Origin: a virus
Length of the DNA stretch: 64,000 nt
Reading direction: 5' to 3' (one strand)
Virus record (IMG/VR): IMGVR_UViG_3300020160_001966
Coordinates: 32,001 to 96,000 of that record
Shown here: in pieces, positions 7,213 to 61,444 of the stretch
Layout: each line of letters begins with the position of its first letter
How positions within the stretch are numbered: the first letter of the stretch is position 1
The notes under the pieces: generated by a model
Told to the model about the DNA's origin: nothing
The model's database searches: none
The model's input: only the letters and a program-made list of their open reading frames with translations
Program-made: the position numbers and the translations under genes

Positions 7213-7611
7213 TTAATCTAAAATTGTGCTATCTGGAATATCTTTTTCTGGCACAAGATAAACATCTATTACCTTTTTATGTTCAACATCTCTTGCTTTT
7301 TTTAATCTATTCAATCCATCCGATACCGATAAACCATAACTTTTGTTTTTTATAACCAATAATGGAAAGGAAGTATCAGCCTTCATCATTCTCTTATTTG
7401 ATTTTTCTGGATCATCTTTATTTTGTTTATCCCACCATTTCAACTCATGTTCAAGCTTTGAAATCGAAAAATCTTTTTTAAAGTATTTTTCTTTATTTTT
7501 CTCTGCAAATTTTACAACAGCGTCAACGGATCTTTTAATTCCATTTTCATCTGTCATAATACCTAGATCTTTTTTTTCTAAAATTTGGTTGATAAGTTTA
7601 TCAAATTTCAT
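7213..7611 (-). CDS. ParB/Srx-like small protein with a CTS-like leader, inserted between nrdB and nrdA
   Basis: KADTSFPLLV...VSDGLNRLKKA resembles the ParB-N 'P(I/L)xV...DGxHR' motif with H replaced by N. N-terminus MKFDKLINQILE. Confidence 0.5.
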   Translation of the reverse strand: MKFDKLINQILEKKDLGIMTDENGIKRSVDAVVKFAEKNKEKYFKKDFSISKLEHELKWWDKQNKDDPEKSNKRMMKADTSFPLLVIKNKSYGLSVSDGLNRLKKARDVEHKKVIDVYLVPEKDIPDSTILD

Positions 7612-7614
7612 ATT

Positions 7615-8586
7615 TTAAAATAAATCGTCTTCTGAAAATGATTGGGATTTTTTGGAGTACTCAACTGGTCTGGAATGAAAAAAGTCAGTCATATTATTTC
7701 CCAATAATTCCTCTTCGAACCACATTGTAGAAGAAATAAGTTCTTTGTCAATCTCAAAAGCTGGGGGAAATCCAATCATTTTAAGGGATTCGTTGATTCT
7801 GTTTTTTACAAATTCTTTAAGAATAACGGCACTAAGACCTTCCTCTTTAATTCCATTTATCATCCAGTCGATAATTTTTGCTTCTGATTCATATGCTTCC
7901 TTTGCTTCGGAAACAACTCTTTCTACAAATTCATCATCAAAAAGATCTGGATATTCTTCTCTAATTGTATTGATTATTTTAGCACCAACAAGAGCATGGA
8001 TATTTTCTTCATTGCGAGTATATTTTACTTGTTGATCTGTATCTTTAAGAACGTTCTTAAAACGAGCGAACCAATTGATTACATAGAATTGAGAAAACAA
8101 TGATACGTTTTCAACGAACAATGTAAAAAGAGTCAAGGCGTATACATATTGCTTCTTAGAATCCTTGTAATAACGATGCGTGTATTTCTTTAAATATTTT
8201 ACCCTACCTTCAATCCAATCAAGTTTTAGGTTCTTCTCAAATACATCTTCTAGCCCAAGTGTAGAGATTAGACGTTCATATGCATTATTATGAATAACTT
8301 CTGTGTTAGCCATAACATACCCCAAATCTTGTAATGCAGGATGTGGAAGATTTTCACCAAGCTTTGACCAGAAAGTTTTTACTGCTATTTCAATTTGTCC
8401 AATAGCAGACAAAGTGCGTATGACTATTTCTCTTTCTTGATCGGTTAAATTTACTTTAAATTGTTGAACATCAGACTTAAATGAAAATTCTTTATCTGTC
8501 CAGAATCCATTGTGCATAGCTTCTATAAATTTATCAGTCCATGGATATTTGTTCGGTTTGCGTGAAATTTGTTCTTCGAAAATCAT
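7615..8586 (-). CDS. nrdB: Class I ribonucleotide reductase beta subunit
   Basis: FW motif, E-x2-H-x3-Y (EVIHNNAY, radical Tyr), ENVSLFSQF, RNEENIH and C-terminal DFF. Confidence 0.97.
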   Translation of the reverse strand: MIFEEQISRKPNKYPWTDKFIEAMHNGFWTDKEFSFKSDVQQFKVNLTDQEREIVIRTLSAIGQIEIAVKTFWSKLGENLPHPALQDLGYVMANTEVIHNNAYERLISTLGLEDVFEKNLKLDWIEGRVKYLKKYTHRYYKDSKKQYVYALTLFTLFVENVSLFSQFYVINWFARFKNVLKDTDQQVKYTRNEENIHALVGAKIINTIREEYPDLFDDEFVERVVSEAKEAYESEAKIIDWMINGIKEEGLSAVILKEFVKNRINESLKMIGFPPAFEIDKELISSTMWFEEELLGNNMTDFFHSRPVEYSKKSQSFSEDDLF

Positions 8587-8621
8587 AGTATTATATTTTA
8601 TTTAATATGAACGCTTCTCTA

Positions 8622-9080
8622 TCAGTTTGGAAATAGAAACATCATATTAATAGATTTAATTCTTTGATAACTAGGCAAATTACCATCTTCCGCGAAAAAG
8701 TCATTATATGAAAATTTCGGAAAATATTTTAAAATATGTTTAGAATCAATAGGATATAACCCATAATCTAAATATAAAAAATTATCACCACATGTTAAAT
8801 CGAACTCATTCAATGTTTTATTATAAAAAAACAAATCTATAATTTTATATTTTTCAAATATATTCAATAAACTAGAATGTTCATCCTTTAATGGCAATAA
8901 AGGGCCATAAAAATTTCTATCTAAATGATTTATTCTTATTGGATTGAAAGATTCCTTTATATGTATTCGATTTTCGTCATATTTACTCTTAATATCACAA
9001 CCTATAAATACACCTCTTTTTTCCAAAGGTGAATATTCTAAAATTGGATTTTTTTCAAAAGAATAAAAATCGTGTTCCAT
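8622..9080 (-). CDS. Hypothetical protein
   Basis: Open frame that fills the intergenic space; start refined to the ATG at 9080 (MEHDFY). Confidence 0.5.
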   Translation of the reverse strand: MEHDFYSFEKNPILEYSPLEKRGVFIGCDIKSKYDENRIHIKESFNPIRINHLDRNFYGPLLPLKDEHSSLLNIFEKYKIIDLFFYNKTLNEFDLTCGDNFLYLDYGLYPIDSKHILKYFPKFSYNDFFAEDGNLPSYQRIKSINMMFLFPN

Positions 9081-9113
9081 ATTAGAGTTATAATAACACA
9101 TCAACACATCTTA

Positions 9114-9361: not shown

Positions 9362-10516
9362 ATGGATGATGAGAATAAATTCATAAAATTTATTATAAGA
9401 AAAGGTGCTGAAGTTAACAGGGATGATGTGGTATACGATGAAGCCGAACCCGTTTATGTAACTGATTATAAAAGATTGTTTATAGGAGACGGAATAACAC
9501 CTGGCGGTGTTTTAACATCAAATAAATTTTTAGGTTTTGCCAATTTTAATTTAATAACTAACCAGTCTGGAGTTATATCGGCGTATAAAGGAGATTATGT
9601 TTACGATAATACTACCAACAATTTATACGCATTGAGTGGAACAATTCCTTCGAATATATTGTCTTATGCTAGAATAACTAGAAATTTTGTAGCAGATAAT
9701 ATCACAACCACATTAACAGAAAGTAGTGCTTTTTCTGTTAAAAAGTTAAGTTTAGACGCTCAATATTTACAAGATTCTTCTATAGGTAGAGGTTTAGAGA
9801 AATATTCTAGTACAGAAATAAGATTAGCCAACCCCTCACAAGAATTATATTTCGATCTAGCCAATAAATTAGCCATAAGTCCAAATGGTATTTCTAATGA
9901 TATGTTAGAAATTATCCAAGGTAATCATATTAAAGGTAATCTTGGAGTGACTGGTAATGTTGAAGATATTCCTTTACAAGACTTGGCTAATGTATTGGCA
10001 CCATTATTAGCAAATTCATCTGGTCAAACTTTAGGGGTACCTGTGGGTACGGTCATAGACTATGCTGGACCAACTCCACCCGAAGGTTATCTTTTCTGTA
10101 ATGGTCAAACTTTATCAGCATCAGAGTATCCCGAATTGTACAATTCTATAGAAAATTACTGGGGAGGTACATATCCTTTATTCAATTTACCAGATTTTAG
10201 AAGAAGAGTATCTGTAGGATCTGGTGGTACATCTACGACAAATTTAGAAAATGCTTTAGGTAGTGTTGGTGGATCAGAAACAGTTATTCTGGAAAAAGAT
10301 GATATACCATCACACATTCACACTTATCAAGGATTTTCCGAAGAGAATGGTAATTACTACATACAAAAATTCGAAAATCCTGATGGTAATTTTTCATTTA
10401 AAGATATTCCAAGTGGAGATGGTTCCATTAACGGTTTAAACATTGGACCTTTGGGAAGACCCGCTAATATTATCCAACCTAGTGTTGTTGTAACAAAATG
10501 TATAAAAGCTTTTTAA
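9362..10516 (+). CDS. Tail fibre/baseplate protein with an Mtd-like N-terminus and a phage tail collar domain
   Basis: IIRKG...EPVYVTDYKRLFIGDG.TPGG at the N-terminus; PVGTVIDYAGPTPPEGYLFCNGQ...YPELY...FNLPDFRRR is the collar domain. Confidence 0.8.
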   Translation: MDDENKFIKFIIRKGAEVNRDDVVYDEAEPVYVTDYKRLFIGDGITPGGVLTSNKFLGFANFNLITNQSGVISAYKGDYVYDNTTNNLYALSGTIPSNILSYARITRNFVADNITTTLTESSAFSVKKLSLDAQYLQDSSIGRGLEKYSSTEIRLANPSQELYFDLANKLAISPNGISNDMLEIIQGNHIKGNLGVTGNVEDIPLQDLANVLAPLLANSSGQTLGVPVGTVIDYAGPTPPEGYLFCNGQTLSASEYPELYNSIENYWGGTYPLFNLPDFRRRVSVGSGGTSTTNLENALGSVGGSETVILEKDDIPSHIHTYQGFSEENGNYYIQKFENPDGNFSFKDIPSGDGSINGLNIGPLGRPANIIQPSVVVTKCIKAF

Positions 10517-10755
10517 TGAAATTTGATGATGAAATATTGAGAATAATAGAAGCCTTCAATATATACCCAAGATCTAAAAACGTTCAAGGATTGCAAGCTC
10601 CTGTACCTTCAACTAATATTAACACTGTAGGTTCATTACCAGTAGGTTTTAAAGGTTCTGGACCAGCTGGTATAGCACCGTCCAGCATGTCAACAATTTT
10701 AATAAAAAAACCAAAGAAGAAAAAAATTAAAAAGAAGAAAGATTCTTCTCTTTAA
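10516..10755 (+). CDS. Small basic protein with a CTS-like leader
   Basis: TAATG coupling to the collar gene; MKFDDEILRIIE; Lys-rich tail. Confidence 0.55.
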   Translation: MKFDDEILRIIEAFNIYPRSKNVQGLQAPVPSTNINTVGSLPVGFKGSGPAGIAPSSMSTILIKKPKKKKIKKKKDSSL

Positions 10756-11110
10756 TTTCATTAGAAGCTATTTCCAACATGGATTTTAAATCTGGATTAT
10801 CCATCATTTGAATAATATTTTCGTAAGGATTAACGCCTTTATTATCTTTATCCACTTTAGATAGGTTGTATATATCTTCTAAAATTTGATTGATTTGATC
10901 CTTTAATCTGGAAAATGTCGTTATACCCTTATAACTCTGTTTTAATTTATCAAATTCTTCCTCTTCTTCGGATTTAACAGGTAGTGGGAAATTTGAACCT
11001 CCAGCCATAAAATCTCCAGAAAATTTAGAATTGTTATCCACTGCACTATTATTGGCATCGTTTTCTTTTAAAATCCAATTATCTATAGATGGTTGCCAAA
11101 AGTTTCTCAT
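10727..11110 (-). CDS. Hypothetical late protein (CTS-like ILKE)
   Basis: ACTAAATA 5 nt before the ATG; MRNFWQPSIDNWILKE. Confidence 0.55.
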   Translation of the reverse strand: MRNFWQPSIDNWILKENDANNSAVDNNSKFSGDFMAGGSNFPLPVKSEEEEEFDKLKQSYKGITTFSRLKDQINQILEDIYNLSKVDKDNKGVNPYENIIQMMDNPDLKSMLEIASNEIKEKNLSSF

Positions 11111-14786: not shown

Positions 14787-15322
14787 TCGACAACTATGCA
14801 ATACGTGGGGCATCCATCCTCTGTTAAAAAATCTATTTTTAAATTTTTATCTCTGCAAAATTCATCGACAGCATTAACTACGCTTTGAAATATATTTTTA
14901 GAATAATCGTGACCACATATATGTTTACCTTTTTTAATTTTTCTATAAGAAACTTCTAAGTCTTTTTTGACACCCTCATAACTATGATCTCCATCAATAT
15001 AAATCAAATCAAAATATCCGTCTGGAAAATTATTTAATACATTAAAACTACATCCCTTATGTAGATGAATAATGCTGTTATTATCGTATTCGTTTTTAAG
15101 TTTTAAATATTCATCGTTCAAATTTGTCCATACGACATTATTTCCATCTTTATCACCAGAACACATTTCACCATCGAAAATATCTATTAAATGTAATTCT
15201 TTGGGTTCCATTTTCTCATATATTATTTTTGAAAAATCTCCTTTAAAAACTCCAATTTCAGCTACAATTATATTTTTAGGCAATATATCTAAAAGATCGT
15301 TTCGCGTTTTTAATATTTTCAT
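14783..15322 (-). CDS. Class I SAM methyltransferase (Methyltransf_24-like)
   Basis: AEIGVFKGDFS, FDLIYIDGDHSYEGVKKD, ICGHDY. Confidence 0.85.
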   Translation of the reverse strand: MKILKTRNDLLDILPKNIIVAEIGVFKGDFSKIIYEKMEPKELHLIDIFDGEMCSGDKDGNNVVWTNLNDEYLKLKNEYDNNSIIHLHKGCSFNVLNNFPDGYFDLIYIDGDHSYEGVKKDLEVSYRKIKKGKHICGHDYSKNIFQSVVNAVDEFCRDKNLKIDFLTEDGCPTYCIVVD

Positions 15323-16691: not shown

Positions 16692-16700
16692 CGACCTAAA

Positions 16701-24359: not shown

Positions 24360-25595
24360 TTATCTAGATTGTATTCTAGCAGGAGGTCTATCTGCTGTAG
24401 GAGATTGTTGTTGTCTAACAGAAGGTCTATTAGTTGTTTGAGACTCTTGGCTGTTCTTCTCATCTTCCTTTTTACCACCTGAGAAAAAGTTTTTAATCGA
24501 TGTGCCAACATCTCCAGCAAAATTGGAAGCAGAACCAGCGGCACCGCTCATTCCAGATTGTGGTCTAAAATCTTTACCTTCTCTTCTAACCTGAACATAT
24601 TCTGGTTTATTATACTCACCTCTACCTTTTTTTGGATTTCTGATATATAATTGAGTTTTTGGATTATTAACATCTTCCTGTGTTGCTGGTCTATATTTCC
24701 CACCACCCATATCAACATATGATGGAAGAGTGTCTTTTCCAAATTTGATAGGCGTTGGTACTTGATATTTTGGGGTCTGATCCGATGTTGTGGGTGTCGT
24801 TGAAGATCCTTGAACATTTCTTCCTAAAGTAGCTGCATTTTTATAATCAGATGAAGCATATGCCTTGTTTATGATGGGTTGAAACTTTTTAACATCATCT
24901 GGATTGTTTATATCGAATCTTTTACCGTTATTATCGTAAAATTGTTTTAAAGCAGATTTTAATACTTCATTTTTACCTTTATCTAATGAACTTGCTGAAT
25001 CATATTCACCACCCATGTATTTTTTAAACACATTTTTAAGTCTTTCATCAGCGGCTAATTCAGCTTCACTTCCAGTAGCTTGTGTCGTTTTTTCCGCTTC
25101 TGAAGATACTTCATTTCCAGCAGTTTCTTGTGACGGCGCGGCATCTACTCCACCATCTGGTACACTCACAGGTTCAATTTCTTCTATAGATGCATCTTTG
25201 CCAGCAGTGGGAGTTTCACTTTCAACTTCTTCTGGAGTATCACCAGAGTTTATTATCTCTATTACAACTGGTTGAAAATCTGAATTATAAACACTTGGAA
25301 ATACAGTTACTAAATTGTTTTGAAATTCTCTAAAAGCATTTGTGGCTTTTTGATCATTGGAATTTAGATAAGCTTTACCAGCATCTGTATTTGCAGCATC
25401 TTTATATCCATTTAAAAATTCCAAAGCTTTTTCATACATGCTAACGCCGCCAGGTGTTTCGACTTTAGGATTATTTAAAAATTCCTTTTTTTGTTCTTCG
25501 GATAAATTTGAAAAATAATTGTTAAATTTAATTATTTTAGAAATTACATCTTCCATGTTATTTTCATTCTGTTCTCTCAATATTTTATATTTCAT
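24360..25595 (-). CDS. Large low-complexity protein with a CTS-like leader (candidate internal/ejection protein)
   Basis: Start refined to the ATG at 25595 (MKYKILRE), just downstream of the 25603 stop; acidic and Ser/Thr/Gly-rich linkers. Confidence 0.55.
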   Translation of the reverse strand: MKYKILREQNENNMEDVISKIIKFNNYFSNLSEEQKKEFLNNPKVETPGGVSMYEKALEFLNGYKDAANTDAGKAYLNSNDQKATNAFREFQNNLVTVFPSVYNSDFQPVVIEIINSGDTPEEVESETPTAGKDASIEEIEPVSVPDGGVDAAPSQETAGNEVSSEAEKTTQATGSEAELAADERLKNVFKKYMGGEYDSASSLDKGKNEVLKSALKQFYDNNGKRFDINNPDDVKKFQPIINKAYASSDYKNAATLGRNVQGSSTTPTTSDQTPKYQVPTPIKFGKDTLPSYVDMGGGKYRPATQEDVNNPKTQLYIRNPKKGRGEYNKPEYVQVRREGKDFRPQSGMSGAAGSASNFAGDVGTSIKNFFSGGKKEDEKNSQESQTTNRPSVRQQQSPTADRPPARIQSR

Positions 25596-27850: not shown

Positions 27851-28597
27851 TTATTTATTAATAAAATTTTGTAATTTCTTACCACTCTCAGAATTTGATA
27901 TAGCACCCCATGCTTGAGATAATGTTCCTTGTAAAGCTTTTTGCATTGCAGATGTTGAAAAATCCATAACAGCGTTTCCAGCATTTTGTAAAGTATCTTT
28001 CCAAGAATTATTTTCTGGTGGCGTGGTATTACCATCTTTATCAACATTTTCTTCTTTATCATCTGGAATTGTATTATTCTGTTCTATTCCAACCTTAGAA
28101 GATCTTGCAACTCCAAGATGAACGTGATCATAATGATTACCACCAACATTTGATAACCAAATAATCTGGATTCTAAAACCATCTGGTGTATAATATTTGA
28201 AATCTCTACCCTCATAAGGTTTCCAAGAAGTAACATTTGCTCCACAATTTCTAGCAACAGCTATTGCAAATTGCGTTCCAGCCTCAACGTTTCCATTAAA
28301 TGTCGTATTCAAACCAAAATCTGCTGCATATGCTGTCGTATTTCCAACATAATGATCTGACATATACCCCGATTTCGTATTTTTTGTCCCCCTTTTTAAA
28401 GAATATGCTTTCCAATTACCCATGGGTAAAAGCGATATAAGTTTTGGCATGGAACCTCCCCAATCCCCATTTGAACCTCCAGCACTAGGTTGACCAGATG
28501 CATTTGCAACACCCACCAATGACCCTAAAGGGTTTTTATATGCCTCAAGAATAATATTATATTGTTTTAATATATTATGTGTGTCGGAATTAAACAT
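27851..28597 (-). CDS. M15-like Zn peptidase domain protein with a CTS-like leader
   Basis: SDHYVG...AADF and GNHYDHVHLG (H...D...HxH); leader ends in IILE. Confidence 0.6.
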   Translation of the reverse strand: MFNSDTHNILKQYNIILEAYKNPLGSLVGVANASGQPSAGGSNGDWGGSMPKLISLLPMGNWKAYSLKRGTKNTKSGYMSDHYVGNTTAYAADFGLNTTFNGNVEAGTQFAIAVARNCGANVTSWKPYEGRDFKYYTPDGFRIQIIWLSNVGGNHYDHVHLGVARSSKVGIEQNNTIPDDKEENVDKDGNTTPPENNSWKDTLQNAGNAVMDFSTSAMQKALQGTLSQAWGAISNSESGKKLQNFINK

Positions 28598-28603: not shown

Positions 28604-29278
28604 TTATTTCATATAGCTACTCATAAAATCTTCGTATTTTTTACCAATAGCCCCCTTTGCTGTATTTAAAACAGAAGATAATGCTTTTTTCATTCCCTCT
28701 TTACTAAAATCCCCACCAGTTAAATCATATACTTGTTGTTTAACATCATCGTATGTACTAGATGCAACATCTCCAATTTTAGACAATGTATCATTTTCTT
28801 CCGAACCATTATCACTTTCATCGTTTGATTTAATATTTGAAACTATTTCTCTTTCGTAATCGGAATTAGGTTTTATATTTAAAGGTGTAACTACCAAGTT
28901 ATTACTATTTTTACCCAAATTTGCAAAATAATTGTACATTTGTTTATCAGATCCAGAGTAAAAATCTATATTGTTTGTGACAGAACCACCACCTTTATCA
29001 TCAACTCTATATATACCTTCAGTATTTCCAAATTCAGAACCTACAGGTCTTCCAGTTCTTTTATCTACTATTTTGACAATAGTACCGTGTGGAAGTTTAT
29101 TATTTGCTACAGAATATCCTGCTATTAATTTGTTGTTTTTATTTCCCATGTATTGCCACTCTGGTTTCAATATACCGTTCCTTATTTCACTTGCAGTTGT
29201 GCTATCAATATCAGCATTTCCATAAGCTGTGGCTCCAAACATATATTTTTCCAAAACAAATTGTTTAAATGTTCTCAC
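28604..29278 (-). CDS. 3D-domain (MltA-like) peptidoglycan hydrolase with a CTS-like leader
   Basis: ATAYG...SVANNKLPHGTIVKI...YRVDDKGGG...NIDFY; leader MRTFKQFVLE; TATAAATA 5 nt before the GTG. Confidence 0.7.
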   Translation of the reverse strand: MRTFKQFVLEKYMFGATAYGNADIDSTTASEIRNGILKPEWQYMGNKNNKLIAGYSVANNKLPHGTIVKIVDKRTGRPVGSEFGNTEGIYRVDDKGGGSVTNNIDFYSGSDKQMYNYFANLGKNSNNLVVTPLNIKPNSDYEREIVSNIKSNDESDNGSEENDTLSKIGDVASSTYDDVKQQVYDLTGGDFSKEGMKKALSSVLNTAKGAIGKKYEDFMSSYMK

Positions 29279-29316: not shown

Positions 29317-29841
29317 ATGGTTGGAAAAAAAGATACAGTAATGATATTTGAAAAATATCGCAACGTTTTAGCTGAACAACAACAAAACAATAATATACAG
29401 TCTATAATAAATCAAATAAACACTTCAGCTTTAGCTCCAGAAGTTAAACAAGGTCTAGTTTCTTTATTAAAAAATCCCGAAGTTGCATCTAAATGGCAAA
29501 GTGGTGATGCTGATACTGTGAATGCTGGTGATTCAAATTTTGCTAAAGAATTATCAATGGCAAAATATGGCGCTCCAGATCAAGATTTAGCAAATGCTCC
29601 AGATCCCAATTTTGCTAAAGAAATGGCCGCTGAAAGAGCTAAACAACAAAAGCAATATCCAGAACAAGAAGAAAACGAAGAATCTCCAGTAAATTGTGCA
29701 ACTCTCCCCACACCAGAGGAAAGAAACAATTGTAACGTTAGAAGAAAACAAGTTGCAATCAACAGTTTTTCAAAAATTCAAAATCCAGAGAAAAAAACGG
29801 TTTATAACGATCCTAACACCAGCAATAAAAGCTGGTTTTAA
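29317..29841 (+). CDS. Hypothetical late protein with a CTS-like leader and an internal NFAKE repeat
   Basis: MVGKKDTVMIFEKYRNVLAE; DSNFAKELS and DPNFAKEMA duplicated motif. Confidence 0.55.
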   Translation: MVGKKDTVMIFEKYRNVLAEQQQNNNIQSIINQINTSALAPEVKQGLVSLLKNPEVASKWQSGDADTVNAGDSNFAKELSMAKYGAPDQDLANAPDPNFAKEMAAERAKQQKQYPEQEENEESPVNCATLPTPEERNNCNVRRKQVAINSFSKIQNPEKKTVYNDPNTSNKSWF

Positions 29842-30577: not shown

Positions 30578-31051
30578 TTATTTTTGAAGTGTTTTTCTAT
30601 ACAAATTTAAAATATCCTCATCATTTAAACCCATTTGCTTTAGATAAGTTTCTATGAAAGATATATCATTTGATGTTATTGCTTGTTGAACATCTGCGGA
30701 TTCCAAATCCTTACCAAGTTCTTTCAATTTTTCGACAAGGTGTTTTTTAAATGTTGAAAGTCTTGAGCTATTAATTTTCGTTGCTTTTCCAGTTTCTTGA
30801 GTATTTTCATCTTCAACAGGCTCCAAATTAGACTTAGAGACAGTTTGAATAGGATTAATTCCTGTTGGAGTGTTGATAATGAAAACTTTGAACTCTGTGG
30901 GAGAACCTCCACATTCTTGCAATACATATCCTTCATAATAAGGTGAATTGATTATACCCAACTTCTCAGACCACATAGGATCTACCTTAATGCGGACTTT
31001 TTGAAGTTTTGTTGTTCCAATCGCTTTTTCCAACAGGTTTAAAAATTTCAC
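30578..31051 (-). CDS. Hypothetical late protein with a CTS-like leader
   Basis: TATAAATA (31057-31064) 5 nt before the GTG; MKFLNLLE. Confidence 0.6.
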   Translation of the reverse strand: MKFLNLLEKAIGTTKLQKVRIKVDPMWSEKLGIINSPYYEGYVLQECGGSPTEFKVFIINTPTGINPIQTVSKSNLEPVEDENTQETGKATKINSSRLSTFKKHLVEKLKELGKDLESADVQQAITSNDISFIETYLKQMGLNDEDILNLYRKTLQK

Positions 31052-31086: not shown

Positions 31087-31497
31087 TTAGTCTTTTTTAC
31101 TAACATCAACCAACCCACCATTTATTTTAATAAATGGTTCTCCCAATAACACCTTATATTCATTTTCCGTTCTATCCGCAATTGAAAATGGAACGTTGGA
31201 ATATTTTTTACCATTTATAGAAACATTAAATTCAACCACTGGTCTATTTTCTTTATTGCCAGATCCTATATGTATTTTTATATCGTCTTTAAATGGACAT
31301 GTTATTATTTTCCCATCTATGGTTTCGAACGTAACTTGTCCGTTTTTAGTAGCTTTGACTATACCATGTAAAACATTGTGTGCGGTATTTCCAGTATCTG
31401 TTTTTGCTTTTAAAAATCCAATACCTTCAATTTCAATATCCTCTACAATACCTAGAGCTTTTTCTAAAATAGTTTTATATAGTTTTATAAATTTCAC
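31087..31497 (-). CDS. Retropepsin-like aspartic protease (RimK-associated/RimB-like family) with a CTS-like leader
   Basis: KAKTDTGN (DTG), RPVV, DRTENEYKVLLG; leader MKFIKLYKTILE. Confidence 0.75.
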   Translation of the reverse strand: MKFIKLYKTILEKALGIVEDIEIEGIGFLKAKTDTGNTAHNVLHGIVKATKNGQVTFETIDGKIITCPFKDDIKIHIGSGNKENRPVVEFNVSINGKKYSNVPFSIADRTENEYKVLLGEPFIKINGGLVDVSKKD

Positions 31498-31522: not shown

Positions 31523-33136
31523 GTGAATAAAGATTGTTATTTAATTTTTGAACAATATAGATTAATTTCAGAAAATTTAATTCTAGAAAATGTACAAAAG
31601 GCTATAGAAATAAGAAACAAATATTACCCATCTTTAAAATATCAAGGAGAATTGATAGGAGATTATGAAGTTGAGGAAATATACAACGCCTTGGCTAGAC
31701 AGCAAGTGGCGAAAACGATATATTTGAATTGGATATTCCTTTTAATACAAAATCGTGTTCCTAGAATAATGGAAGATTTACAAACAATAGCCAAAAATTT
31801 AAAAGTTTTTAATTCCAAGAGTAGTAAAATAGCAGCAGATGGATACCCAACTCAACTTTTCAAACCAAATAAAGAATTAATATATAAAACACCTCAAGAC
31901 TTATATAAAGTTGTTGAAAATTATATGAATACTGATGATGTTGGTGAAAGAGGATTGTTAAAAACAGCTGAATATTTGAAATCAAAAGGAGAAGTTGGAA
32001 AAATTTATGAAGATGATGTTTATGCGGTTTATACTCCAAAAACATATGATGCATCGAAAGAATTAGCGTGTTTGACTAATTGGTGTACTAGGTTTCCAGA
32101 CATGTATAAAAGATATTCTGGTGATGGACCTTTATATATTATTTTAAACAAACAATCTCTTGGCAATACGGAAGATAATAATAGAATGATACAATTTCAT
32201 ATTCCCTCAAAACAATTTAAAGATATAAAAGATAGAGAAATTAGAGAAAGACCCGTATTTATGAATAATTTGAAAGGTTTATTCAATACATTATACCCTA
32301 ATGCATTATCTCAATTTAAAAAATTATCCAATGGTGAAATTGAAAGATCGGAATTAAGTGACGAAGCTAAACAATCTTTATATCTGATGCCTCAAGAATA
32401 TAAAGAAGGATTGAATTTACCTTGTGGTGAAATGGAAGAAAAAATAGCCTCTGAATTAGGTGTTGATTGTGCTTTGGTTTTTGAAACTGACGGAAGATAT
32501 GAAGTCAATGGTGAAATTTATGAGGTGCAAGAAGTATCACAAGTTAAAAATCAAGCAGTAGAAGGTATATTAGATTCTGGACTGGAAAGTGATTGGTTTT
32601 ACAAAAATGTTTTAGATTATGGTAGACAGTATTCATGGGAAACAATTTACCGAAAAGAAGAATACGAAAACACACATTGGAATCAAAGAAAATATGAATT
32701 TGAAGATTTATTTGGAAATGATAATTATGTTGAAATTTATAATGAACATTTAAAACCTTATCTGTCTGAAGAAGAAGAATATAAAGTTAGAAAAGCTACA
32801 GAATATGGTTACGATACATGGGTTGAAACAAAATTACCACCAAAAGTTTACGATGAGTATGATTTGGAAGATGGTTCTTATTTGAAAGATGTCCCATATG
32901 AAGTGTATATAAGTTTCATGGAAGACTTTAGAGGAGATAATCCCATAAAATGGTATGTTGAAGAAAGAGGAGATAACGTTCAAGACATACCTAACATAGA
33001 TTTGGATGCAGCTGTTGGTGAATTTGTTGAAAATTTAAATTGGGATGACTTGGTATCATGGTCAGGAAGCTACGATGGTACAGGTTATAATTTTGATTTA
33101 AACGGTACGGAATATATGTTATACAGGATGGAGTAG
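31523..33136 (+). CDS. Large CTS-leader protein with a PcfJ-like domain
   Basis: VYTPKTYDASKELACLTNWCT...Y...GPLYIIL...IQFH...QFKD motif common in large phages; leader MNKDCYLIFEQY...LILE. Confidence 0.55.
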   Translation: MNKDCYLIFEQYRLISENLILENVQKAIEIRNKYYPSLKYQGELIGDYEVEEIYNALARQQVAKTIYLNWIFLLIQNRVPRIMEDLQTIAKNLKVFNSKSSKIAADGYPTQLFKPNKELIYKTPQDLYKVVENYMNTDDVGERGLLKTAEYLKSKGEVGKIYEDDVYAVYTPKTYDASKELACLTNWCTRFPDMYKRYSGDGPLYIILNKQSLGNTEDNNRMIQFHIPSKQFKDIKDREIRERPVFMNNLKGLFNTLYPNALSQFKKLSNGEIERSELSDEAKQSLYLMPQEYKEGLNLPCGEMEEKIASELGVDCALVFETDGRYEVNGEIYEVQEVSQVKNQAVEGILDSGLESDWFYKNVLDYGRQYSWETIYRKEEYENTHWNQRKYEFEDLFGNDNYVEIYNEHLKPYLSEEEEYKVRKATEYGYDTWVETKLPPKVYDEYDLEDGSYLKDVPYEVYISFMEDFRGDNPIKWYVEERGDNVQDIPNIDLDAAVGEFVENLNWDDLVSWSGSYDGTGYNFDLNGTEYMLYRME

Positions 33137-33139: not shown

Positions 33140-33418
33140 TTACCAATTTTTACAACTTAAATATTTTGCCGTACCTGGCTTTGCCGTAGAGCATTTATGT
33201 CTAGCTCGAAAAGATTTTTTACGTTTTGTATTTCCACTCTTTCCAGTAACTTTCACACCCTTTTGCCCAAAATGTACTCTTTTATAACCTTTTCCTTTTG
33301 GGTTTTTCACACACTGCATCCATTTTTTACCTTTGGCTGTTGAAGATGTTTTTTTAGTTGGGCCAGTACATTTTGAGGATTCTAATAAAACATTAACCAA
33401 TTGATCGAAATTATTCAT
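33140..33418 (-). CDS. Small basic Cys-containing late protein with a CTS-like leader
   Basis: KRVHFGQKG...RKKSFRARHKC...YLSCKNW motif typical of aquatic phages; leader ends in VLLE; AATAAATA 5 nt upstream. Confidence 0.65.
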   Translation of the reverse strand: MNNFDQLVNVLLESSKCTGPTKKTSSTAKGKKWMQCVKNPKGKGYKRVHFGQKGVKVTGKSGNTKRKKSFRARHKCSTAKPGTAKYLSCKNW

Positions 33419-33448: not shown

Positions 33449-34054
33449 ATGAGTAGAAAAAATAGTCTTTTGGAAATTTCCAAAGCTTATGAACAAATTT
33501 TAAACGAAATGAATATTGGGATAGATTCATCTGCTCAAAACACTTTGTTGAAAAACACAATGAAGCCATATGCATCCGAAAAAAAAGAATATCAATTCGT
33601 GATTCCCAAAAAACAATCTTCTAAACAAATGTTTAATACAGCTATGAAAGGGGATTTAGAAGGTGGTAAATGCCCTTGCGATTCCAATAAATGTGGAGAG
33701 CAAAATGACGAAGAAGAATCCAATGAAGATTCCAATTTAAACATGGCAAAATCAGAAACTTATAAAATATTAAATTATGCAAAAGATTTGATGGAATTGT
33801 TGGAAAAAACTGATAAAATAGAGGCATGGATGTTAGCAAAATTAGTAAATGCAGCAGATTATTTGTGTTCAGTAAGAGGCGTATTGGAATACGAAGATTA
33901 CGAACAAAATGTCAAACAGTGCGTTGATGATTTATCAAGTGATATGAAAATCGTAACCCATATAAATAATATGCTTAGTGGAGAAAACGAACATGTTAAT
34001 GAAGAAGTTTTAAAAAGAGCAATTTTTAATTTGGAGATATTAAGATCAAAATGA
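33449..34054 (+). CDS. Prohead-core-like late protein
   Basis: MAKSE...EAWMLAKLVNAADYL motif seen in T4-like core/scaffold-type proteins; AATAAATA 5 nt before the ATG at 33449. Confidence 0.55.
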   Translation: MSRKNSLLEISKAYEQILNEMNIGIDSSAQNTLLKNTMKPYASEKKEYQFVIPKKQSSKQMFNTAMKGDLEGGKCPCDSNKCGEQNDEEESNEDSNLNMAKSETYKILNYAKDLMELLEKTDKIEAWMLAKLVNAADYLCSVRGVLEYEDYEQNVKQCVDDLSSDMKIVTHINNMLSGENEHVNEEVLKRAIFNLEILRSK

Positions 34055-34437
34055 GTAGATTTCACACATTATTAAACAGAGCGTATAGGGAGATAATAAC
34101 AGAACAAGAACAACCTCCAGTTCCACAAGGAACCCCTGAACAAGCAGTACCAACACCTATTCCAGAAGTTCCTGAAACTCAACCACAACCTCAATCCCCA
34201 ATTAAACCTTTAACATCAGAAGGTGAAACAGTTTTGGTTAGAATATTAGCTAAAGCTATATTAGTGGATATAACAGATCCAGTAGATGAACTTTCTGTTA
34301 AAGATATTTCTGAGAACAAAATCAATGCAGAAAACGCCCAAGAGTCTTTAACAAAATTAGTATCTATCATAAGAAAATATGATCAATCTGTTTCTAATGA
34401 GTTAGATATAGACAAGATTTTTCAATCAACTAAATAA
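34051..34437 (+). CDS. Hypothetical late protein (CTS-like, Pro-rich linker)
   Basis: ATGA-coupled; MSRFHTLLNRAYREIITE. Confidence 0.55.
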   Translation: MSRFHTLLNRAYREIITEQEQPPVPQGTPEQAVPTPIPEVPETQPQPQSPIKPLTSEGETVLVRILAKAILVDITDPVDELSVKDISENKINAENAQESLTKLVSIIRKYDQSVSNELDIDKIFQSTK

Positions 34438-34960: not shown

Positions 34961-35442
34961 TAGGTAAAATTTTTCTTTTTTGATAATCTTACGTTAATTA
35001 TTCCATTTATTGATTTTTCCTCAAAGAGACAATTGTTATCTACTTGATATTTCATTTCACAATATTTCAATTCAAATTTTCCACCTCTAACTATAGTTAG
35101 AATTTCAAAATTGATATTTTCTTTACCTTTTTTTGAAATATAATCCTTAATATAATTAGAAGACGATGAGTAATCTTTCCAATCGCTTTCAACTATTCGC
35201 CTTCTGGCATTTGTTCTACCCTTTAATGGTTTTAACTTTTTTTTTGAATTGAATTGTTTAGATCCTATATACCAGCAACCGTCAGGTAGTGTTATTTTGT
35301 AAACAAATCCGAATAAATTAGAATTTAAATTACCAAAATAGTTTATATTTTCGGCAATAATCCAGTGTCCACATTCTTTAAGATCTATTTCTAGTTCTTT
35401 TGTTTCTTTTTCGTTTTCTTCTTTTGGCGTTTTTTTTGGCAT
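34957..35442 (-). CDS. GIY-YIG nuclease, T4 endonuclease II (DenA)-like
   Basis: FGFVYKIT...WYIGSKQF...ESDWKDYSSSS...E.KYQ...NGII. Confidence 0.7.
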   Translation of the reverse strand: MPKKTPKEENEKETKELEIDLKECGHWIIAENINYFGNLNSNLFGFVYKITLPDGCWYIGSKQFNSKKKLKPLKGRTNARRRIVESDWKDYSSSSNYIKDYISKKGKENINFEILTIVRGGKFELKYCEMKYQVDNNCLFEEKSINGIINVRLSKKKNFTY

Positions 35443-35614
35443 TTCTTTTAAATGTTCCTAACACGTGTGCTATTTGTGTGCTTCCACTATTCCAAAAATC
35501 ACTGTTACCAAAATCCCCTCCGTGATTAAATGAAGACCCATCCCCAAAAACCCCACCTCCTCCAGAGGCGTTATCTTCTAAAATAGTGTTAACTGTTGCA
35601 TCAAAAAGTCTCAT
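35378..35614 (-). CDS. Small Gly-rich/basic protein with a CTS-like leader
   Basis: MRLFDATVNTILE; Arg/Lys-rich tail. Confidence 0.55.
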   Translation of the reverse strand: MRLFDATVNTILEDNASGGGGVFGDGSSFNHGGDFGNSDFWNSGSTQIAHVLGTFKRNAKKNAKRRKRKRNKRTRNRS

Positions 35615-48859: not shown

Positions 48860-49525
48860 TTAATAGTTAGATGATCTAAAATCTTCATCATCTTTTCTAA
48901 AATCTGTACCCATGTCTCTGATTATATCTTCCCACTTACCCTTTAGTTCTTGTTTTTTCCAGTCTTGTTCTCTTTCATCAGAGTCGTCAAATTCCGAATA
49001 GTCATCATCTTCGAAAGACTGAAGAACGTCTGGTTCTTTATCTGGATCAAAATCTTCAAACTTATCATCATCCATTTCTTCTTCGCTAATAGCGTTTAGT
49101 TCTATCAATTTATCGTAAATTGATAGAGGTGATGCGGTGATAATCCCCTCTTCATCATTTGTTGAAGAGTTTACTCTTTCTATAGCTTTTTTGATAGCGG
49201 ATAAAATATCGACATCTTCCGTTACATTTGGAATATTTCTAAGAATTTCTCTAAGCTTTGGTCCAATATTCGTACTCAAATCTTCTGCTTTTACAACAAC
49301 TTTTCTTTTAGGTTTTTCCTCTTGTTCTGTATCATTACCTTCTAAGTCAATATTTTCAGCATCATTATCCAAATCTCCCGTATCTATGTCATTTTCCACA
49401 CTTGATTCTATATCACCAGTGTTGTCTTTCTCGTTATCGTTCTCATCAGAAACACTATCTTTGAACTTTTTTAAAATTTCTTCTCTATAGGATTCGAATA
49501 TTGCTACTTGATCATTATTTCTCAT
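48860..49525 (-). CDS. Highly acidic late protein with a CTS-like leader
   Basis: MRNNDQVAIFESY; D/E-rich; ACTAAATA upstream. Confidence 0.6.
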   Translation of the reverse strand: MRNNDQVAIFESYREEILKKFKDSVSDENDNEKDNTGDIESSVENDIDTGDLDNDAENIDLEGNDTEQEEKPKRKVVVKAEDLSTNIGPKLREILRNIPNVTEDVDILSAIKKAIERVNSSTNDEEGIITASPLSIYDKLIELNAISEEEMDDDKFEDFDPDKEPDVLQSFEDDDYSEFDDSDEREQDWKKQELKGKWEDIIRDMGTDFRKDDEDFRSSNY

Positions 49526-57735: not shown

Positions 57736-58335
57736 ATGAACAAATATATAATTTATCTTTTAGGCTGTATTTTATTCTCCTTTGGAGCTACACTATTTAT
57801 TACTAGCAATTTGGGTACTGACCCCTTGGATGTTCTGGCTATTGGAATGAAAGACACATTTGGTTGGATGATAGGTACAACTCAAAGCGTTTTCGCATTA
57901 TGTTGTTTATTTCTATATAGTTATTTGAATAAATGGAAATTCCCACCAATCTCAACCTTCTTGACTTTTTTCATATGTGGATATCTTATAGATTTTTTTC
58001 TATTTTTATTAAACCATCAACACATTGTTAATCCATTTCTGGAAATGCTTTTTGGGGTTATTATTTGTACCCAAGCTAGTGCTTTAATAATGATGTCTGG
58101 ATTTGGTATAAGAGCCATGGATTTGGTTGCAATATCATTATCCGAGATAACCAAAAAACCATTTTGGCTGTTTAAAGGTATTGCCGAGGTATTGCTTTTG
58201 ACCGTTGGTTATTTTTTGGGAGGCATTGTTGGTATCGGCACTATTTTCTTTTTACTATTTGTGGGTTGGTTAATACAACCATGTATTCGTTTAAATAGTA
58301 AATTGGGAATACCTAATTACGGCAAGGTTCATTAA
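57736..58335 (+). CDS. YczE/YitT-family integral membrane protein
   Basis: SNLGTDPLDVL motif, about 6 TM segments, duplicated half with GG.VGIGTI. Confidence 0.75.
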   Translation: MNKYIIYLLGCILFSFGATLFITSNLGTDPLDVLAIGMKDTFGWMIGTTQSVFALCCLFLYSYLNKWKFPPISTFLTFFICGYLIDFFLFLLNHQHIVNPFLEMLFGVIICTQASALIMMSGFGIRAMDLVAISLSEITKKPFWLFKGIAEVLLLTVGYFLGGIVGIGTIFFLLFVGWLIQPCIRLNSKLGIPNYGKVH

Positions 58336-58751
58336 TCTTGCTCACCAGCAATTAAGTATCCCTTTAATGCTTCAGCTAAACCGCTGAGTTCAACTGCTAT
58401 ACGAGATATTCTACGATGTTCCGAGGATGCTATTTTCTCGAAAAGGGTATCGCAACCAGCATTGTGTAATTGAGCTTGAACGGATGTTTGATTCACACCA
58501 TTCACATATTCAACAAATTTTTCAATTTCTGCAACCCATTCAGATAAAATTTTCTTTTGTTTAGCTAAAGATTCTTTTCTAATAACTTCAACTTGACCAA
58601 CATCTGTATTGAAAGATTCTGGTGGTGTCCCAGCATCTAATTCAGCGGTCATAGCTGCTGTTTCCGCATTCGCGGTAGCTTCTGGTGCAGCCACAGCCTC
58701 TTGTTCATCTTGTTCCAAGATGGCGTTGAAATATTTTTCGTATATACCCAT
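58332..58751 (-). CDS. Late protein with a CTS-like leader
   Basis: MGIYEKYFNAILE; AATAAATA (58757-58764) 5 nt upstream. Confidence 0.6.
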   Translation of the reverse strand: MGIYEKYFNAILEQDEQEAVAAPEATANAETAAMTAELDAGTPPESFNTDVGQVEVIRKESLAKQKKILSEWVAEIEKFVEYVNGVNQTSVQAQLHNAGCDTLFEKIASSEHRRISRIAVELSGLAEALKGYLIAGEQD

Positions 58752-58789: not shown

Positions 58790-59176
58790 ATGAAAGAAAA
58801 TTTTAAAATACTTCAAGAAGACGATCAAAAAATATACAATAAATGGGTTAAAGGTATAGCAAAACAGGAAGCTCCGTCTCAAGTTATTACAGTTGATGAT
58901 ATTGTAAATAGATATAGAAATAATGTTTCCTATGAAGCTAGTAGGCAATTACCATTTGGTTTAGATTTTTTATTGGATAGAATAGGTGATATTTTCGTAA
59001 AATGTTCAAATGTGAGAATGGATTTGGCAAATGCTATGAAGAATCCAGTCATATATGAACATAATCAAAGAATATCAGCTGTTAAAAAATTGAATGATAA
59101 AATAGACAAAGTACAAGAAATGTTATTTTCCTGTACGGAAGAGATGAATGAAATAGTTGAAAGTCACGAAAAGTGA
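58790..59176 (+). CDS. Hypothetical late protein
   Basis: TCTAAATA upstream; MKENFKILQE. Confidence 0.55.
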   Translation: MKENFKILQEDDQKIYNKWVKGIAKQEAPSQVITVDDIVNRYRNNVSYEASRQLPFGLDFLLDRIGDIFVKCSNVRMDLANAMKNPVIYEHNQRISAVKKLNDKIDKVQEMLFSCTEEMNEIVESHEK

Positions 59177-59192: not shown

Positions 59193-59669
59193 ATGTTTAA
59201 TGTCACAAATCCTATCATTAAAAGAATAATATCTAGCTTGCTCATAACATCAACAATATCCTTTCTAGGAGCTTTGTTTTTATTAAATTTTGGTTTTAAT
59301 TTTATAGTTAGTTTGTTTTTTATTTTTATTCTACAATTTGTAGTTTTTTATTTTTATGGAGAGCATGTTAAAAGGAAAAATGCATATATTGAGGCAGAAT
59401 TGGAATTGCAAGCTGCTTCTGAATTGAGAAAAATAACCGCTGATGTTGTATGCCCATGTGATCAAAAAGTTCAAACTACCATACCAGTAGAGATGAATCG
59501 TGAAAATTCATATGTGTGCGGTCAATGTAATAAAAGAGTTGGAATTTTGATAGATCTTAAAACCGTATTAAAAACAGATCCGATAATTGATGATCCGTTA
59601 AAAAATTCTGAAATTTTAAAAAATGTAAATGAAGCTTTAAAAGACCCATCTCATAATGATAGAATTTAA
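59193..59669 (+). CDS. Two-TM membrane protein with a Zn-ribbon-like CPC...CxxC
   Basis: Hydrophobic N-terminus; VCPCDQ and YVCGQCNK. Confidence 0.55.
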   Translation: MFNVTNPIIKRIISSLLITSTISFLGALFLLNFGFNFIVSLFFIFILQFVVFYFYGEHVKRKNAYIEAELELQAASELRKITADVVCPCDQKVQTTIPVEMNRENSYVCGQCNKRVGILIDLKTVLKTDPIIDDPLKNSEILKNVNEALKDPSHNDRI

Positions 59670-60024
59670 AAAAACAGATAGTAGTTCCATTCCTCCAGAA
59701 ATTACATCTAGAGAAATTGTTAAAAATGAAGATGTTTTATATTTTTTTGAACAATTGTGTAAAAAAAATGTTGAGGATTATATGGTTTTTAAAAAAAATA
59801 GTTTTAAAAATCAAAATTTAGATATAATTAAAGATTTTTTAAACAAATTTGAGAATTTCATAAAAGATGAAAGTTCAAATAAAGACAATAAAGAAGTTGT
59901 TAATATAATTTTTAACAATATAAAGAACAATATAAAAATATTAGAACATTTGGAAATGCTTCCAAAAGATAATAAAAACAAAGCATTTTTATTATCATTC
60001 GTATCTTCTAGATTATTTCCTTGA
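59656..60024 (+). CDS. Hypothetical protein
   Basis: Coupled ORF. Confidence 0.45.
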   Translation: MIEFKKTDSSSIPPEITSREIVKNEDVLYFFEQLCKKNVEDYMVFKKNSFKNQNLDIIKDFLNKFENFIKDESSNKDNKEVVNIIFNNIKNNIKILEHLEMLPKDNKNKAFLLSFVSSRLFP

Positions 60025-60058
60025 CTTTCTTTTTAAAAATTGAGACACTGCATGTCTT

Positions 60059-60346
60059 ATGAATGAAAAAGTTGTAATCAAAACAAGCAAAGAAGAACAT
60101 GTAATGGATAAAGACGCTTTTATACGTTGGCTATGCTTGATAGAGATTGTTCAATTGGCCGAAGAAAAAGCGATTGATTTGAAGGTAGATTTGGAAGATG
60201 TTGATTGGGTCAAACCATTGGCTTTTAAAAAATATATGAATGAGCGTTTTAAAAGTATGGAAATTGATTTAATGGCTGACGAACGAAATGGTAGTATGGT
60301 CTTGGATTACGTCAATAATAACCACCATATTCCAGAGTATTGTTAA
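60059..60346 (+). CDS. Hypothetical protein
   Basis: Preceded by TTGACT-N17-GACACT. Confidence 0.5.
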   Translation: MNEKVVIKTSKEEHVMDKDAFIRWLCLIEIVQLAEEKAIDLKVDLEDVDWVKPLAFKKYMNERFKSMEIDLMADERNGSMVLDYVNNNHHIPEYC

Positions 60347-61067
60347 TGCTCATATCGAATACGAATTTTTTAGATTCGGTGTCTGAATCTTGTGGATATG
60401 ATGATAGTCTTTCTGTTGGGGTTTGTAAAGACCCCGACAGATCTCCATAGAATGTATCATCATGTACTTGATAATTTCCCTTTTCTTGGGGTATATTCTC
60501 AAAAGAATGTTCAAGACGTTTAGCTTTCAATAACCAAACATAATGGCCAGCTAAAGGATTTATGGAAGAATTGTCCTCATCACATCTTTCTGTAATTTCG
60601 TACATTTTACCGTCTCTTTCACCAGGTCTATCTGAACCGTATTCCACTAATTTAAAAACATCTCCAGATTTAGGTTCTAATTTTTTATCTGGAAAATGAG
60701 CATAAAATGAACTTATGTGTAAATATGCTGTTACTTGATCATCAGATCTATAGCCGAATTTTGATAATACCAAAGCATTCTCAGCCAAAGTGAATATCAT
60801 TATCATCTCTTTAGGTTCTTCGAATTGATCGACTGGCATTTCCCCATAAGTATTATCACCGTCTTTTAAATTGTATAAATTTCTATAATACAATATTTTT
60901 TGACCATATAAATCTATTTGCTCTCTCCAATAATTACTATATAATAATCTTTCAGCTTCATTTTTTTCTTTATCTGTAAAACGCAATGTTGATGACACAT
61001 AGTTATTGTAATTATCGGGATAAGTCCTGATACAATTCACACCTTTATGTTTATCGTAAGTTATCAT
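60312..61067 (-). CDS. gp14: Neck/head-closure protein (T4 gp14-like)
   Basis: WREQIDLYGQKILYY, YGE, LSKFG, P.SGDV, YVW.L: pattern of gp14-type adaptors. Confidence 0.6.
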   Translation of the reverse strand: MITYDKHKGVNCIRTYPDNYNNYVSSTLRFTDKEKNEAERLLYSNYWREQIDLYGQKILYYRNLYNLKDGDNTYGEMPVDQFEEPKEMIMIFTLAENALVLSKFGYRSDDQVTAYLHISSFYAHFPDKKLEPKSGDVFKLVEYGSDRPGERDGKMYEITERCDEDNSSINPLAGHYVWLLKAKRLEHSFENIPQEKGNYQVHDDTFYGDLSGSLQTPTERLSSYPQDSDTESKKFVFDMSINNTLEYGGYY

Positions 61068-61444
61068 TTTTTTAATATAAAGGATTTTTTACTATCATCC
61101 CAAACTATTTGTATTCCAGTATTTCCTAATTTTTTTGGTTCCGTTTTAGATACGCTATATATACCATATTTTTTACATACCTTTTTCAATTGTACACTAT
61201 TTAAAGGGACATTCACAGATGGATTATTTTTCAATTTCTCCACTTGCTGAATGATTGTCATATCTGGTTTATGCATATCTGGAACAGTTTGTGCATGTTT
61301 TCTTTTAAAAGGATCTAATATTAAAGACCTTCTGTGTCTGGCTCCCTTTTTTATAGGTGGTTTTTGTGGTAAAAACATGTTCACGTAACCATGATTCCAT
61401 GTTTGCTCTAAAATAATAGAAAATGTTTTTGCGAATAGCCCCAT
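61064..61444 (-). CDS. Basic late protein with a CTS-like leader
   Basis: Start refined to the ATG at 61444 (MGLFAKTFSIILE), 5 nt after AATAAATA (61450-61457). Confidence 0.6.
   Translation of the reverse strand: MGLFAKTFSIILEQTWNHGYVNMFLPQKPPIKKGARHRRSLILDPFKRKHAQTVPDMHKPDMTIIQQVEKLKNNPSVNVPLNSVQLKKVCKKYGIYSVSKTEPKKLGNTGIQIVWDDSKKSFILKK

Follow-up and report, generated by a model that had tools for sequence, protein, structure and literature searches.

About 20 unrelated open reading frames (ORFs) in a 64,000-nucleotide stretch of viral DNA, bases 32001-96000 of the 116,359-bp IMG/VR contig IMGVR_UViG_3300020160_001966, share a short leader at the N-terminus. These leaders probably constitute a capsid-targeting sequence (CTS)/prohead-protease propeptide system of the phage T4 type, in which the set of leaders and cargo is enlarged and more diverse. 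The whole stretch is referred to below as the window, and coordinates marked "genome" are those of the whole contig. An earlier note on this DNA had proposed T4-like leaders as a shared tag on unrelated proteins, and comparison strongly supported this proposal through the match to the T4 CTS positions, the swapping of leaders among orthologues, the late class of the leader genes, and a T4-type head module.

Core binding, cleavage, virion residence, and injection were inferred by analogy. The first 8-22 residues of the approximately 20 ORFs would be a helical propeptide that corresponds to the T4 CTS and would dock the protein onto the scaffolding core during prohead assembly. A gp21-type prohead protease would then cut after the [ILVM]-x-Glu that closes the leader, leaving the mature protein free inside the DNA-filled head, and many of the mature proteins would be ejected into the host with the DNA. 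The leaders would be interchangeable among a T4-like 10-mer, a 13-mer, and a version of about 20 residues (type B) with two candidate cut sites.

Leader types, gene starts, and exchange of leaders

Three leader types were distinguished. The consensus of A-short was M-[KI]-[TS]-F-K-x-[FY]-[ILV]-x-E (for example, MRTFKQFVLE at 29278 and MRSFSSFINE at genome 21398), and that of the 13-mer A-long was M-x-x-F-[DK]-x-x-Φ-N-x-[IV]-L-E (for example, MKFDKLINQILE at 7611). Type B had the consensus M-N-K-D-x3-I-F-E-x-Y, followed by a second Φ-x-E about 8-10 residues further on (for example, MNKDCELIFENY...LINE at 26400). Because the conserved mature protein begins after this second site in alignments of orthologues, type B appears to be a leader of about 20 residues with two candidate cut sites. 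The leaders were 8-22 amino acids long, and the motif began 0-5 residues past the start codon in every case. In the AlphaFold2 (AF2) models of two cargo proteins, the leader was located in an N-terminal helix.

The ten type A starts named in the earlier note (the A-long, A-short, and short leaders of Table 1) and its four type B starts were all genuine start codons, each followed by the quoted leader. GTG was the start codon in 5 of these 14 genes. Of six looser cases, that at 28597 was confirmed by clear leaders on its orthologues, and those at 33449, 34051, and 58790 were plausible in view of their counterparts in G001, a 229,717-bp relative that was rated 100% complete and played no part in defining the motifs; the leaders at 11110 and 25595 were not verified. 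Further copies were found beyond the window on the same contig, at genome 18625, 20655, 21398, 111788, and 112063. Several cargo genes were called publicly from an internal Met, with the consequent loss of the leader; the gene at 28604-29278 was called from residue 13, and its homologues P0028, P0034, P0047-P0049, and P0094 were truncated likewise. Automatic annotation thus hides the leaders because of both the GTG starts and these truncated gene calls.

The sharing of a leader by about 20 unrelated ORFs was confirmed with position-specific scoring matrices (PSSMs), regular expressions, and a scan of G001. Eleven type A leaders, each represented by its last ten residues, served as seeds of the type A matrix; they scored 18-29 bits, and the best non-seed position in the six-frame translation scored 15.6. 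In leave-one-out analysis, nine of the eleven type A leaders were among the 17 highest-scoring of about 126,000 positions in the six-frame translation, the lowest score being that of the leader at 10516, and all five type B leaders ranked within the top 2 of about 133,000. Regular expressions for the three types matched 18 start codons on the contig, where the rate at non-start positions predicted 2.9, and the same expressions matched 16 starts in G001 against 1.85 expected. Furthermore, when G001 was scanned in six frames with a type B PSSM derived from the contig only, the four best matches were N-terminal, each three codons after a start codon. The leave-one-out ranks, the counts, and the type B scan of G001 indicate that the leader motifs are real, N-terminal, and beyond chance.

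The A-short leaders corresponded closely to the T4 CTS, which was read from the T4 record as MKTYQEFIAE at the N-terminus of ipII/ipIII. Mutagenesis of the T4 CTS assigned targeting to residues 4 and 7 and processing to residues 8 and 10 (PMC9026906), and MRTFKQFVLE and MRSFSSFINE fit at all four positions. Among 49 distinct 10-mers of relatives, pooled from two cargo families with a filter that left positions 3 and 8 unconstrained, F/Y occupied positions 4 and 7, I/L/V/F position 8 (49/49), and E position 10, and position 3 was T/S in 48; one relative carried MKTFKQFIAE. The A-long and type B leaders kept the aromatic residue and the terminal Φ-x-E with a spacing that differs from T4. In T4 itself, an early [LI]-x-E also ends the N-terminal segments of gp67 (MEGLIE), gp68 (...LVLE), gp21 (...LLIE), gp22 (...LIAE), and Alt (MELITE).

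Cultured T4-like genomes were scanned with a back-translated A-short pattern, for which reversed-pattern controls gave zero matches. The pattern occurred in T4 at ipII, ipIII, and gene 61.1, in P-SSM2 at one ORF start, in the Kyanoviridae phage C48C1 at four sites lying at or 3 nt inside annotated coding-sequence starts, and in Caulobacter phage Cr30 at two sites, one of them with an in-frame stop codon; there were zero matches in pf16. A strict type B pattern matched zero sites in these five cultured genomes, four sites in G001, and one on the contig. Because the 10-mer stands at ORF starts of cyanophage-type and Caulobacter T4-like genomes, the short tag looks ancient in the T4 superfamily, whereas type B and the size of the leader set look lineage-specific. 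T4 gene 61.1 (NC_000866 18966-19130), a 54-aa ORF beside the primase gene, starts with MKTFKEFIKE, a near-perfect CTS.

In an all-versus-all BLASTP comparison, the mature parts of 27 leader proteins were mutually dissimilar except for two short local matches, and known domains began past the leader (PF05618 from residue 19 and DUF5754 from residue 25). Leaders were kept between the contig and G001 orthologues with mature parts just 35-57% identical, and in some the leader type differed, as with MKFIKLYKTILE against MRSYKEFFYE and MRLFDATVNTILE against MITFKQFVMNE. Among 86 homologues of the putative peptidase encoded at 27851-28597, 45 had a type B leader, 26 the T4-like 10-mer A-short, and 3 A-long, all preceding the same mature start, and five changes of leader type were required on the tree of the catalytic core. 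Homologues of the 28604-29278 protein carried A-short (33) or A-long (11), and those of the 537-aa protein starting at 31523 carried type B or a MLRELVRKILINE-type leader. Since orthologues of one cargo protein carry different leader types in these three families, the three versions behave as equivalent, exchangeable modules that are portable on unrelated proteins.

The claim in the earlier note that most of these genes follow a late promoter held true. The motif TATAAATA (at most one mismatch, 3-14 nt upstream) preceded 13 of 19 leader genes and 22 of 137 others (Fisher P = 5e-6), and many of these 22 were structural genes. The leader genes thus belong to a late class that has the motif in common with the structural genes. 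They were mostly on the strand opposite to the replication genes, and 13 of the 20 leader genes listed in Table 1 formed a dense island at window 23-36 kb, where several were arranged as divergent pairs with a common promoter region of 25-40 bp. The palindromic TTATTTATATAAATAA at 31497/31523 serves one divergent pair.

At 23589, 29278, 31051, 31497, 31523, and other late genes, TATAAATA ended 5-9 nt before the start, which was often GTG in such genes, and no Shine-Dalgarno sequence was evident. Because of this spacing and the lack of an evident Shine-Dalgarno sequence, the late mRNAs may be nearly leaderless. The same features, together with the GTG share of 5/14, would fit an RNA-level or first-codon effect, by which the N-termini reflect a constraint on translation initiation of such mRNAs and carry no targeting signal. 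We regard this explanation as hardly credible. The leader codons showed synonymous variation and conservative substitutions with the residues kept, so that selection on the leaders appears to act at the protein level; the sheath, tube, and terminase genes have the same promoter spacing without the motif; and T4, whose late mRNAs have ordinary leaders, has the same motif. A protease site and an amphipathic helix would also account for the invariant Glu and the hydrophobic spacing.

Candidate cargo proteins

The leader genes of the window are listed in Table 1.

Table 1 Leader genes in the window, with the N-terminal leader and the encoded protein.
Position	Strand	Leader	Protein
7213..7611	-	A-long MKFDKLINQILE	132 aa, phrog_17560
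10516..10755	+	A-long MKFDDEILRIIE	79 aa, basic tail; G001 orthologue leader MKFDDSIKKIYE
10727..11110	-	loose candidate MRNFWQPSIDNWILKE, leader not verified	127 aa
23380..23589	-	A-long, GTG, MKFYKKVNTVLE	69 aa, basic; G001 orthologue MLFDKNYNFIME
24360..25595	-	loose candidate MKYKILRE..., leader not verified	411 aa
25603..26400	-	type B MNKDCELIFENY...LINE	265 aa, hydrophobic segments, Pro/Ser-rich tail
27851..28597	-	degenerate type B/A hybrid	248 aa, putative LAS/M15-like zinc peptidase
28604..29278	-	A-short, GTG, T4-like MRTFKQFVLE	224 aa, 3D-domain-like
29317..29841	+	type B ...DTVMIFEKYRNVLAE	174 aa, divergent from 29278
30578..31051	-	short, GTG, MKFLNLLE	157 aa; G001 orthologue MLNKLIE
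31087..31497	-	A-long, GTG, MKFIKLYKTILE	136 aa, PF05618 protease-like; G001 orthologue 10-mer MRSYKEFFYE
31523..33136	+	type B, GTG, MNKDCYLIFEQY...LILE	537 aa; orthologues type B or MLRELVRKILINE-type
33140..33418	-	A-long MNNFDQLVNVLLE	92 aa, very basic, Cys-containing; DUF5754 just under Pfam cut-off; phrog_7595
33449..34054	+	loose MSRKNSLLE...ILNE	201 aa; similar N-terminus in G001 orthologue
34051..34437	+	loose MSRFHTLLNRAYREIITE	128 aa; best G001 match begins MKFNKLLE
35378..35614	-	A-long MRLFDATVNTILE	78 aa, Gly-rich, basic tail; G001 orthologue MITFKQFVMNE
48860..49525	-	type B MRNNDQVAIFESY	221 aa, very acidic; no clear second Φ-x-E site
58332..58751	-	A-long MGIYEKYFNAILE	139 aa, acidic; G001 orthologue MSLFANHFNSILE
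58790..59176	+	loose 10-mer MKENFKILQE	128 aa; V-L-N-E at the same place in G001 orthologue
61064..61444	-	A-long MGLFAKTFSIILE	126 aa, basic; G001 orthologue VSLFEKVFVSLLE

Searches of the 20 window proteins against Pfam and PHROGs returned only PF05618, DUF5754 (just below the cut-off), and three unannotated PHROGs, and phmmer against the PDB gave nothing useful. The earlier note had described the cargo as enzymatically diverse. Its protease assignment was supported, as protease-like, at 31087-31497 by a match to the retropepsin-type PF05618 above the cut-off (E = 7e-9), whereas its ParB-like protein (7213-7611) found no support in Pfam. For the proposed PcfJ-like protein (31523-33136), PcfJ-like matches appeared in BFVD at E = 1e-3 to 0.2 with a TM score of about 0.2, below a match to a virion structural protein of PA5oct at 6e-9, and no PcfJ match was obtained in Pfam or PHROGs; the 537-aa AF2 model of this protein gave Z < 6 throughout in a VIA-wide comparison. 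A Foldseek search of the PDB gave no match for either of the two AF2 models of cargo proteins. The basic DNA-binding proteins of the note were basic by composition: those starting at 10516, 23589, 33418, 35614, 61444, and genome 112063 were small and strongly basic, and in composition the small basic leader proteins resemble the T4 internal proteins.

The assignment of peptidoglycan hydrolases in the earlier note received moderate support for two proteins (27851-28597 and 28604-29278). In the first protein, H82, H155, H158, and H160 were invariant and D93 nearly so. Its best structural match was the C-terminal domain of VldE (9flh; Z 6.9, root-mean-square deviation (rmsd) 2.8 Å, 88 residues aligned), followed by the Zn DD-peptidase 1lbu (Z 6.0, rmsd 3.9 Å, 109 aligned), hedgehog N-domains (Z 5.0-5.2), and two phage L-Ala-D-Glu peptidases (Z 3.6-3.7); all matches were at Z < 8, and the protein had no Pfam match. 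Taken together, these findings suggest with moderate confidence that the modelled protein is an LAS/M15-like zinc peptidase acting as a cell-wall hydrolase. The second protein looks like a 3D-domain, lytic transglycosylase-like wall hydrolase. At least 13 of its listed homologues are named "3D domain-containing protein" by JGI, and the best Atlas cluster was 3D at 0.87, which is a lead only; the query itself had no Pfam match, the 3D domain (PF06725) included.

Both putative wall hydrolases ended in a common helical tag, 46% identical over about 35 aa, after a disordered linker, and this tag was unrelated to either catalytic domain. It may provide a second signal for targeting or processing, in analogy to T4 Alt, which is processed at its C-terminus.

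Another explanation is that the leaders signal a fate other than the capsid interior, such as incorporation into the tail or baseplate, membrane association, or regulated degradation. The wall hydrolases of T4 are tail-associated, one homologue of the 3D-domain protein is fused to a gp5-type OB domain (PF04717), and two leader proteins have hydrophobic segments. We nevertheless consider another destination very unlikely, since the 10-mer fits the capsid-targeting determinants of T4 position by position and the prohead protease of relatives ends its own leader in the same terminal motif. Capsid-internal wall hydrolases also exist elsewhere: T7 gp16 is a capsid-internal protein with a lytic transglycosylase.

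Several other genes were noted in and around the cargo island. A gene for a SegE-type GIY-YIG homing endonuclease (34957-35442; PF19835, 9e-24) lies within the island and adjoins uvsY (35622-36050). A class I methyltransferase gene (27051-27812) overlaps a 197-aa ORF (26474-27067), for which an ATE1/Bpt-like identity was rejected with no Pfam match at E ≤ 0.001. A run of glycosyltransferase and methyltransferase-like genes (14783-22432) is located between tail-fibre-like genes and the island.

Source phage, head module, and prohead protease

The contig is about 55% complete (CheckV) with a G+C content of about 30%. Its DNA polymerase shared about 30% identity with the polymerases of T4-like phages, those of the cyanophage type included. 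The major capsid protein (MCP) matched phrog_138 at 8e-83 and aligned to T4 gp23 from residue 4 on, including the propeptide region ...LL.KWKP.L, and the terminase, tail tube, and sheath genes adjoin the capsid gene. The MCP of the nearest cultured phage was 34% identical. The source is a deep-branching, uncultured myovirus and a distant member of the T4 superfamily. Searches of cultured phages gave no megablast match to 10 kb of the window and no tblastn match to the 27851-28597 peptidase. Relatives of the capsid protein were encoded on at least 599 IMG/VR stretches, the best 80 being 71-94% identical, and the clade, which consists of freshwater, distantly T4-like giant phages, is therefore abundant but uncultured. 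Another contig of 198,024 bp encodes cargo proteins identical to ones described here; a search of metagenome contigs with an exact pattern gave no match to it.

Genes for a gp23-like capsid protein and a gp22-like scaffold were present on the contig. The 290-aa scaffold gene is located upstream of the MCP gene, and its G001 orthologue matched phrog_237 weakly. In relatives with 72-84% capsid identity, a gp21-type protease (PF03420, Peptidase_S77) was encoded just upstream of the scaffold gene; this arrangement was found in six of the relatives compared (G001-G005 and G009) and in at least 80 further fetched loci. The protease of these relatives itself begins with M-x-L-[RK]-L-L-[VI]-E.

Several observations weigh against a T4-type propeptide system in the source phage. 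The PF03420 protease was not found on the roughly 55%-complete contig by hidden Markov model, and tblastn with the G001 protease gave no match there either. The protease slot, which lies between the genes for the core protein and the scaffold, was occupied by 1-3 paralogous type B proteins in the contig (genome 17813-18625, to the left of the window) and in its nearest relatives (L004, L005, L006, and L019). The MCP lacked a Glu at the position aligned to the cleavage site of T4 gp23 (after Glu65). The occurrence of the motif in the uncharacterised T4 gene 61.1 indicates that the motif alone is no proof of packaging. On the peptidase tree, strongly supported branches forced one leader switch only. 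Finally, [IL]-x-E occurred within the first 25 residues of 45 of 159 called ORFs against 29 expected from internal positions, and because early sites are so common, the loose cases are not individually callable.

With type B proteins in its canonical slot, the protease appears to have been displaced or lost from that position in the subclade. IMG/VR scans for it returned only loci that were at most about 76% identical to the contig in DNA sequence, so that no protease was tied to the subclade. As the portal gene is missing from the contig as well, we assume that the protease is probably encoded in the half of the genome that the contig does not cover. The type B protein at genome 18625 was considered as a diverged protease and rejected, as it had no similarity to the protease and was largely of low complexity; its C-terminal domain matched the small core protein of relatives instead. 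In more than 40 relatives, the small core protein that matches this domain of the slot type B proteins (FLK.L.EKNY...HKYLK) comes after the protease.

These features bear on a further explanation, in which the leaders do target the prohead core and most of the proteins are assembly-core or scaffold accessories, comparable to T4 gp67, gp68, and gp22, that are degraded and expelled before packaging, leaving no injected set. The T4 core proteins bear the same kind of early [LI]-x-E, the scaffold protein of the contig is full of Φ-x-E sites, and several leader proteins that are very acidic or of low complexity adjoin the scaffold gene (genome 18625, with its core-protein domain, genome 14351-15220, and window 48860-49525). 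We consider this explanation unlikely for most of the set. Many leader proteins appear to be folded enzymes or small basic proteins (the LAS peptidase, the 3D-domain protein, PF05618, and DUF5754), the leader genes are scattered far from the head module, and the proteins turn over rapidly between relatives, as expected of host-interaction cargo. Within the T4-type propeptide system, the acidic leader proteins that adjoin the scaffold gene probably belong to the assembly core and are not injected effectors. Delivery is likelier for the small basic proteins, the enzyme-like proteins, and the two putative wall hydrolases.

The genome 14351-15220 gene (left of the window), located between those for the terminase and the capsid protein, encodes an acidic protein of 289 aa with a type B-like N-terminus. 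Near residue 100, it contained an internal ...NF-MSIFDKLYE... that was kept in five relatives and could mark either a start or a cleavage site within the protein.

Comparison with known systems

Proteins injected with the DNA are active before phage gene expression begins, which makes them prime candidates for anti-restriction and host takeover, as exemplified by T4 IPI* and Alt. Their rapid evolution makes such proteins difficult to detect from sequence. The leader described here would allow the entire set to be traced from sequence only across a large uncultured lineage, with the 13-mer and type B extending the tag; its practical value would lie in finding injected proteins in uncultured phages. 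More tentatively, the leaders may mark a readable "injectome", in which 15 to more than 30 proteins per clade genome are delivered through one tag system, including wall hydrolases and fast-evolving takeover or anti-defence effectors, and type B is an undescribed, two-site, lineage-specific leader. Provided that the leaders function as they do in T4, they could also serve as alternative packaging tags for the capsid delivery of foreign proteins.

The closest parallel is the set of T4 internal proteins (IPI, IPII, and IPIII) and Alt. The T4 internal-protein propeptides comprise 10-19 residues, and the CTS has been suggested as an evolutionary device for loading varied proteins (PMC9026906). The internal proteins of T-even phages are diverse defence proteins with the CTS alone in common (PMC3012670). 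The leaders of the contig resemble this system in being N-terminal and closing in [LI]-x-E, in the aromatic residues at positions 4 and 7, in late expression, in the accompanying T4-type gp22/gp23 head module, and in their occurrence on unrelated, fast-evolving mature proteins, small basic ones included. Unlike T4, which has four CTS cargo proteins, 18-24 leader proteins were found on half a genome here, and their genes were scattered with one dense island. The two further leader versions, the likely wall hydrolases and protease-like protein among the cargo, and the contig on which no protease gene was seen also distinguish this phage from T4.

The inner-body and ejection proteins of phiKZ, 201phi2-1, and SPN3US likewise form a large and diverse head-internal set in giant phages. 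In phiKZ-like phages, a gp175-type (gp21-like) protease cleaves after Glu, at S/A-x-E (PMC9026906). The P3 preference is thus Ser/Ala there versus Ile/Leu/Val here, and the phiKZ-like propeptides are long and, unlike the present leaders, have no common short N-terminal tag; the capsid proteins and the genome type differ as well.

The Dar (defence against restriction) proteins of phage P1 are anti-defence proteins that travel inside the head and enter the host along with the DNA (PMC12810830, PMC9024508). The delivery proposed here would be similar. The Dar proteins are incorporated by an ordered dependency among themselves and are not known to use a common cleavable 10-mer tag. The T7 internal core protein gp16 and the P22 ejection proteins have no common cleavable leader; such proteins are conserved, low in number, and build a conduit for ejection. 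Like the cargo proposed here, however, T7 gp16 and the P22 ejection proteins are capsid-resident and are ejected ahead of or with the DNA, and the lytic transglycosylase of T7 gp16 parallels the two putative wall hydrolases.

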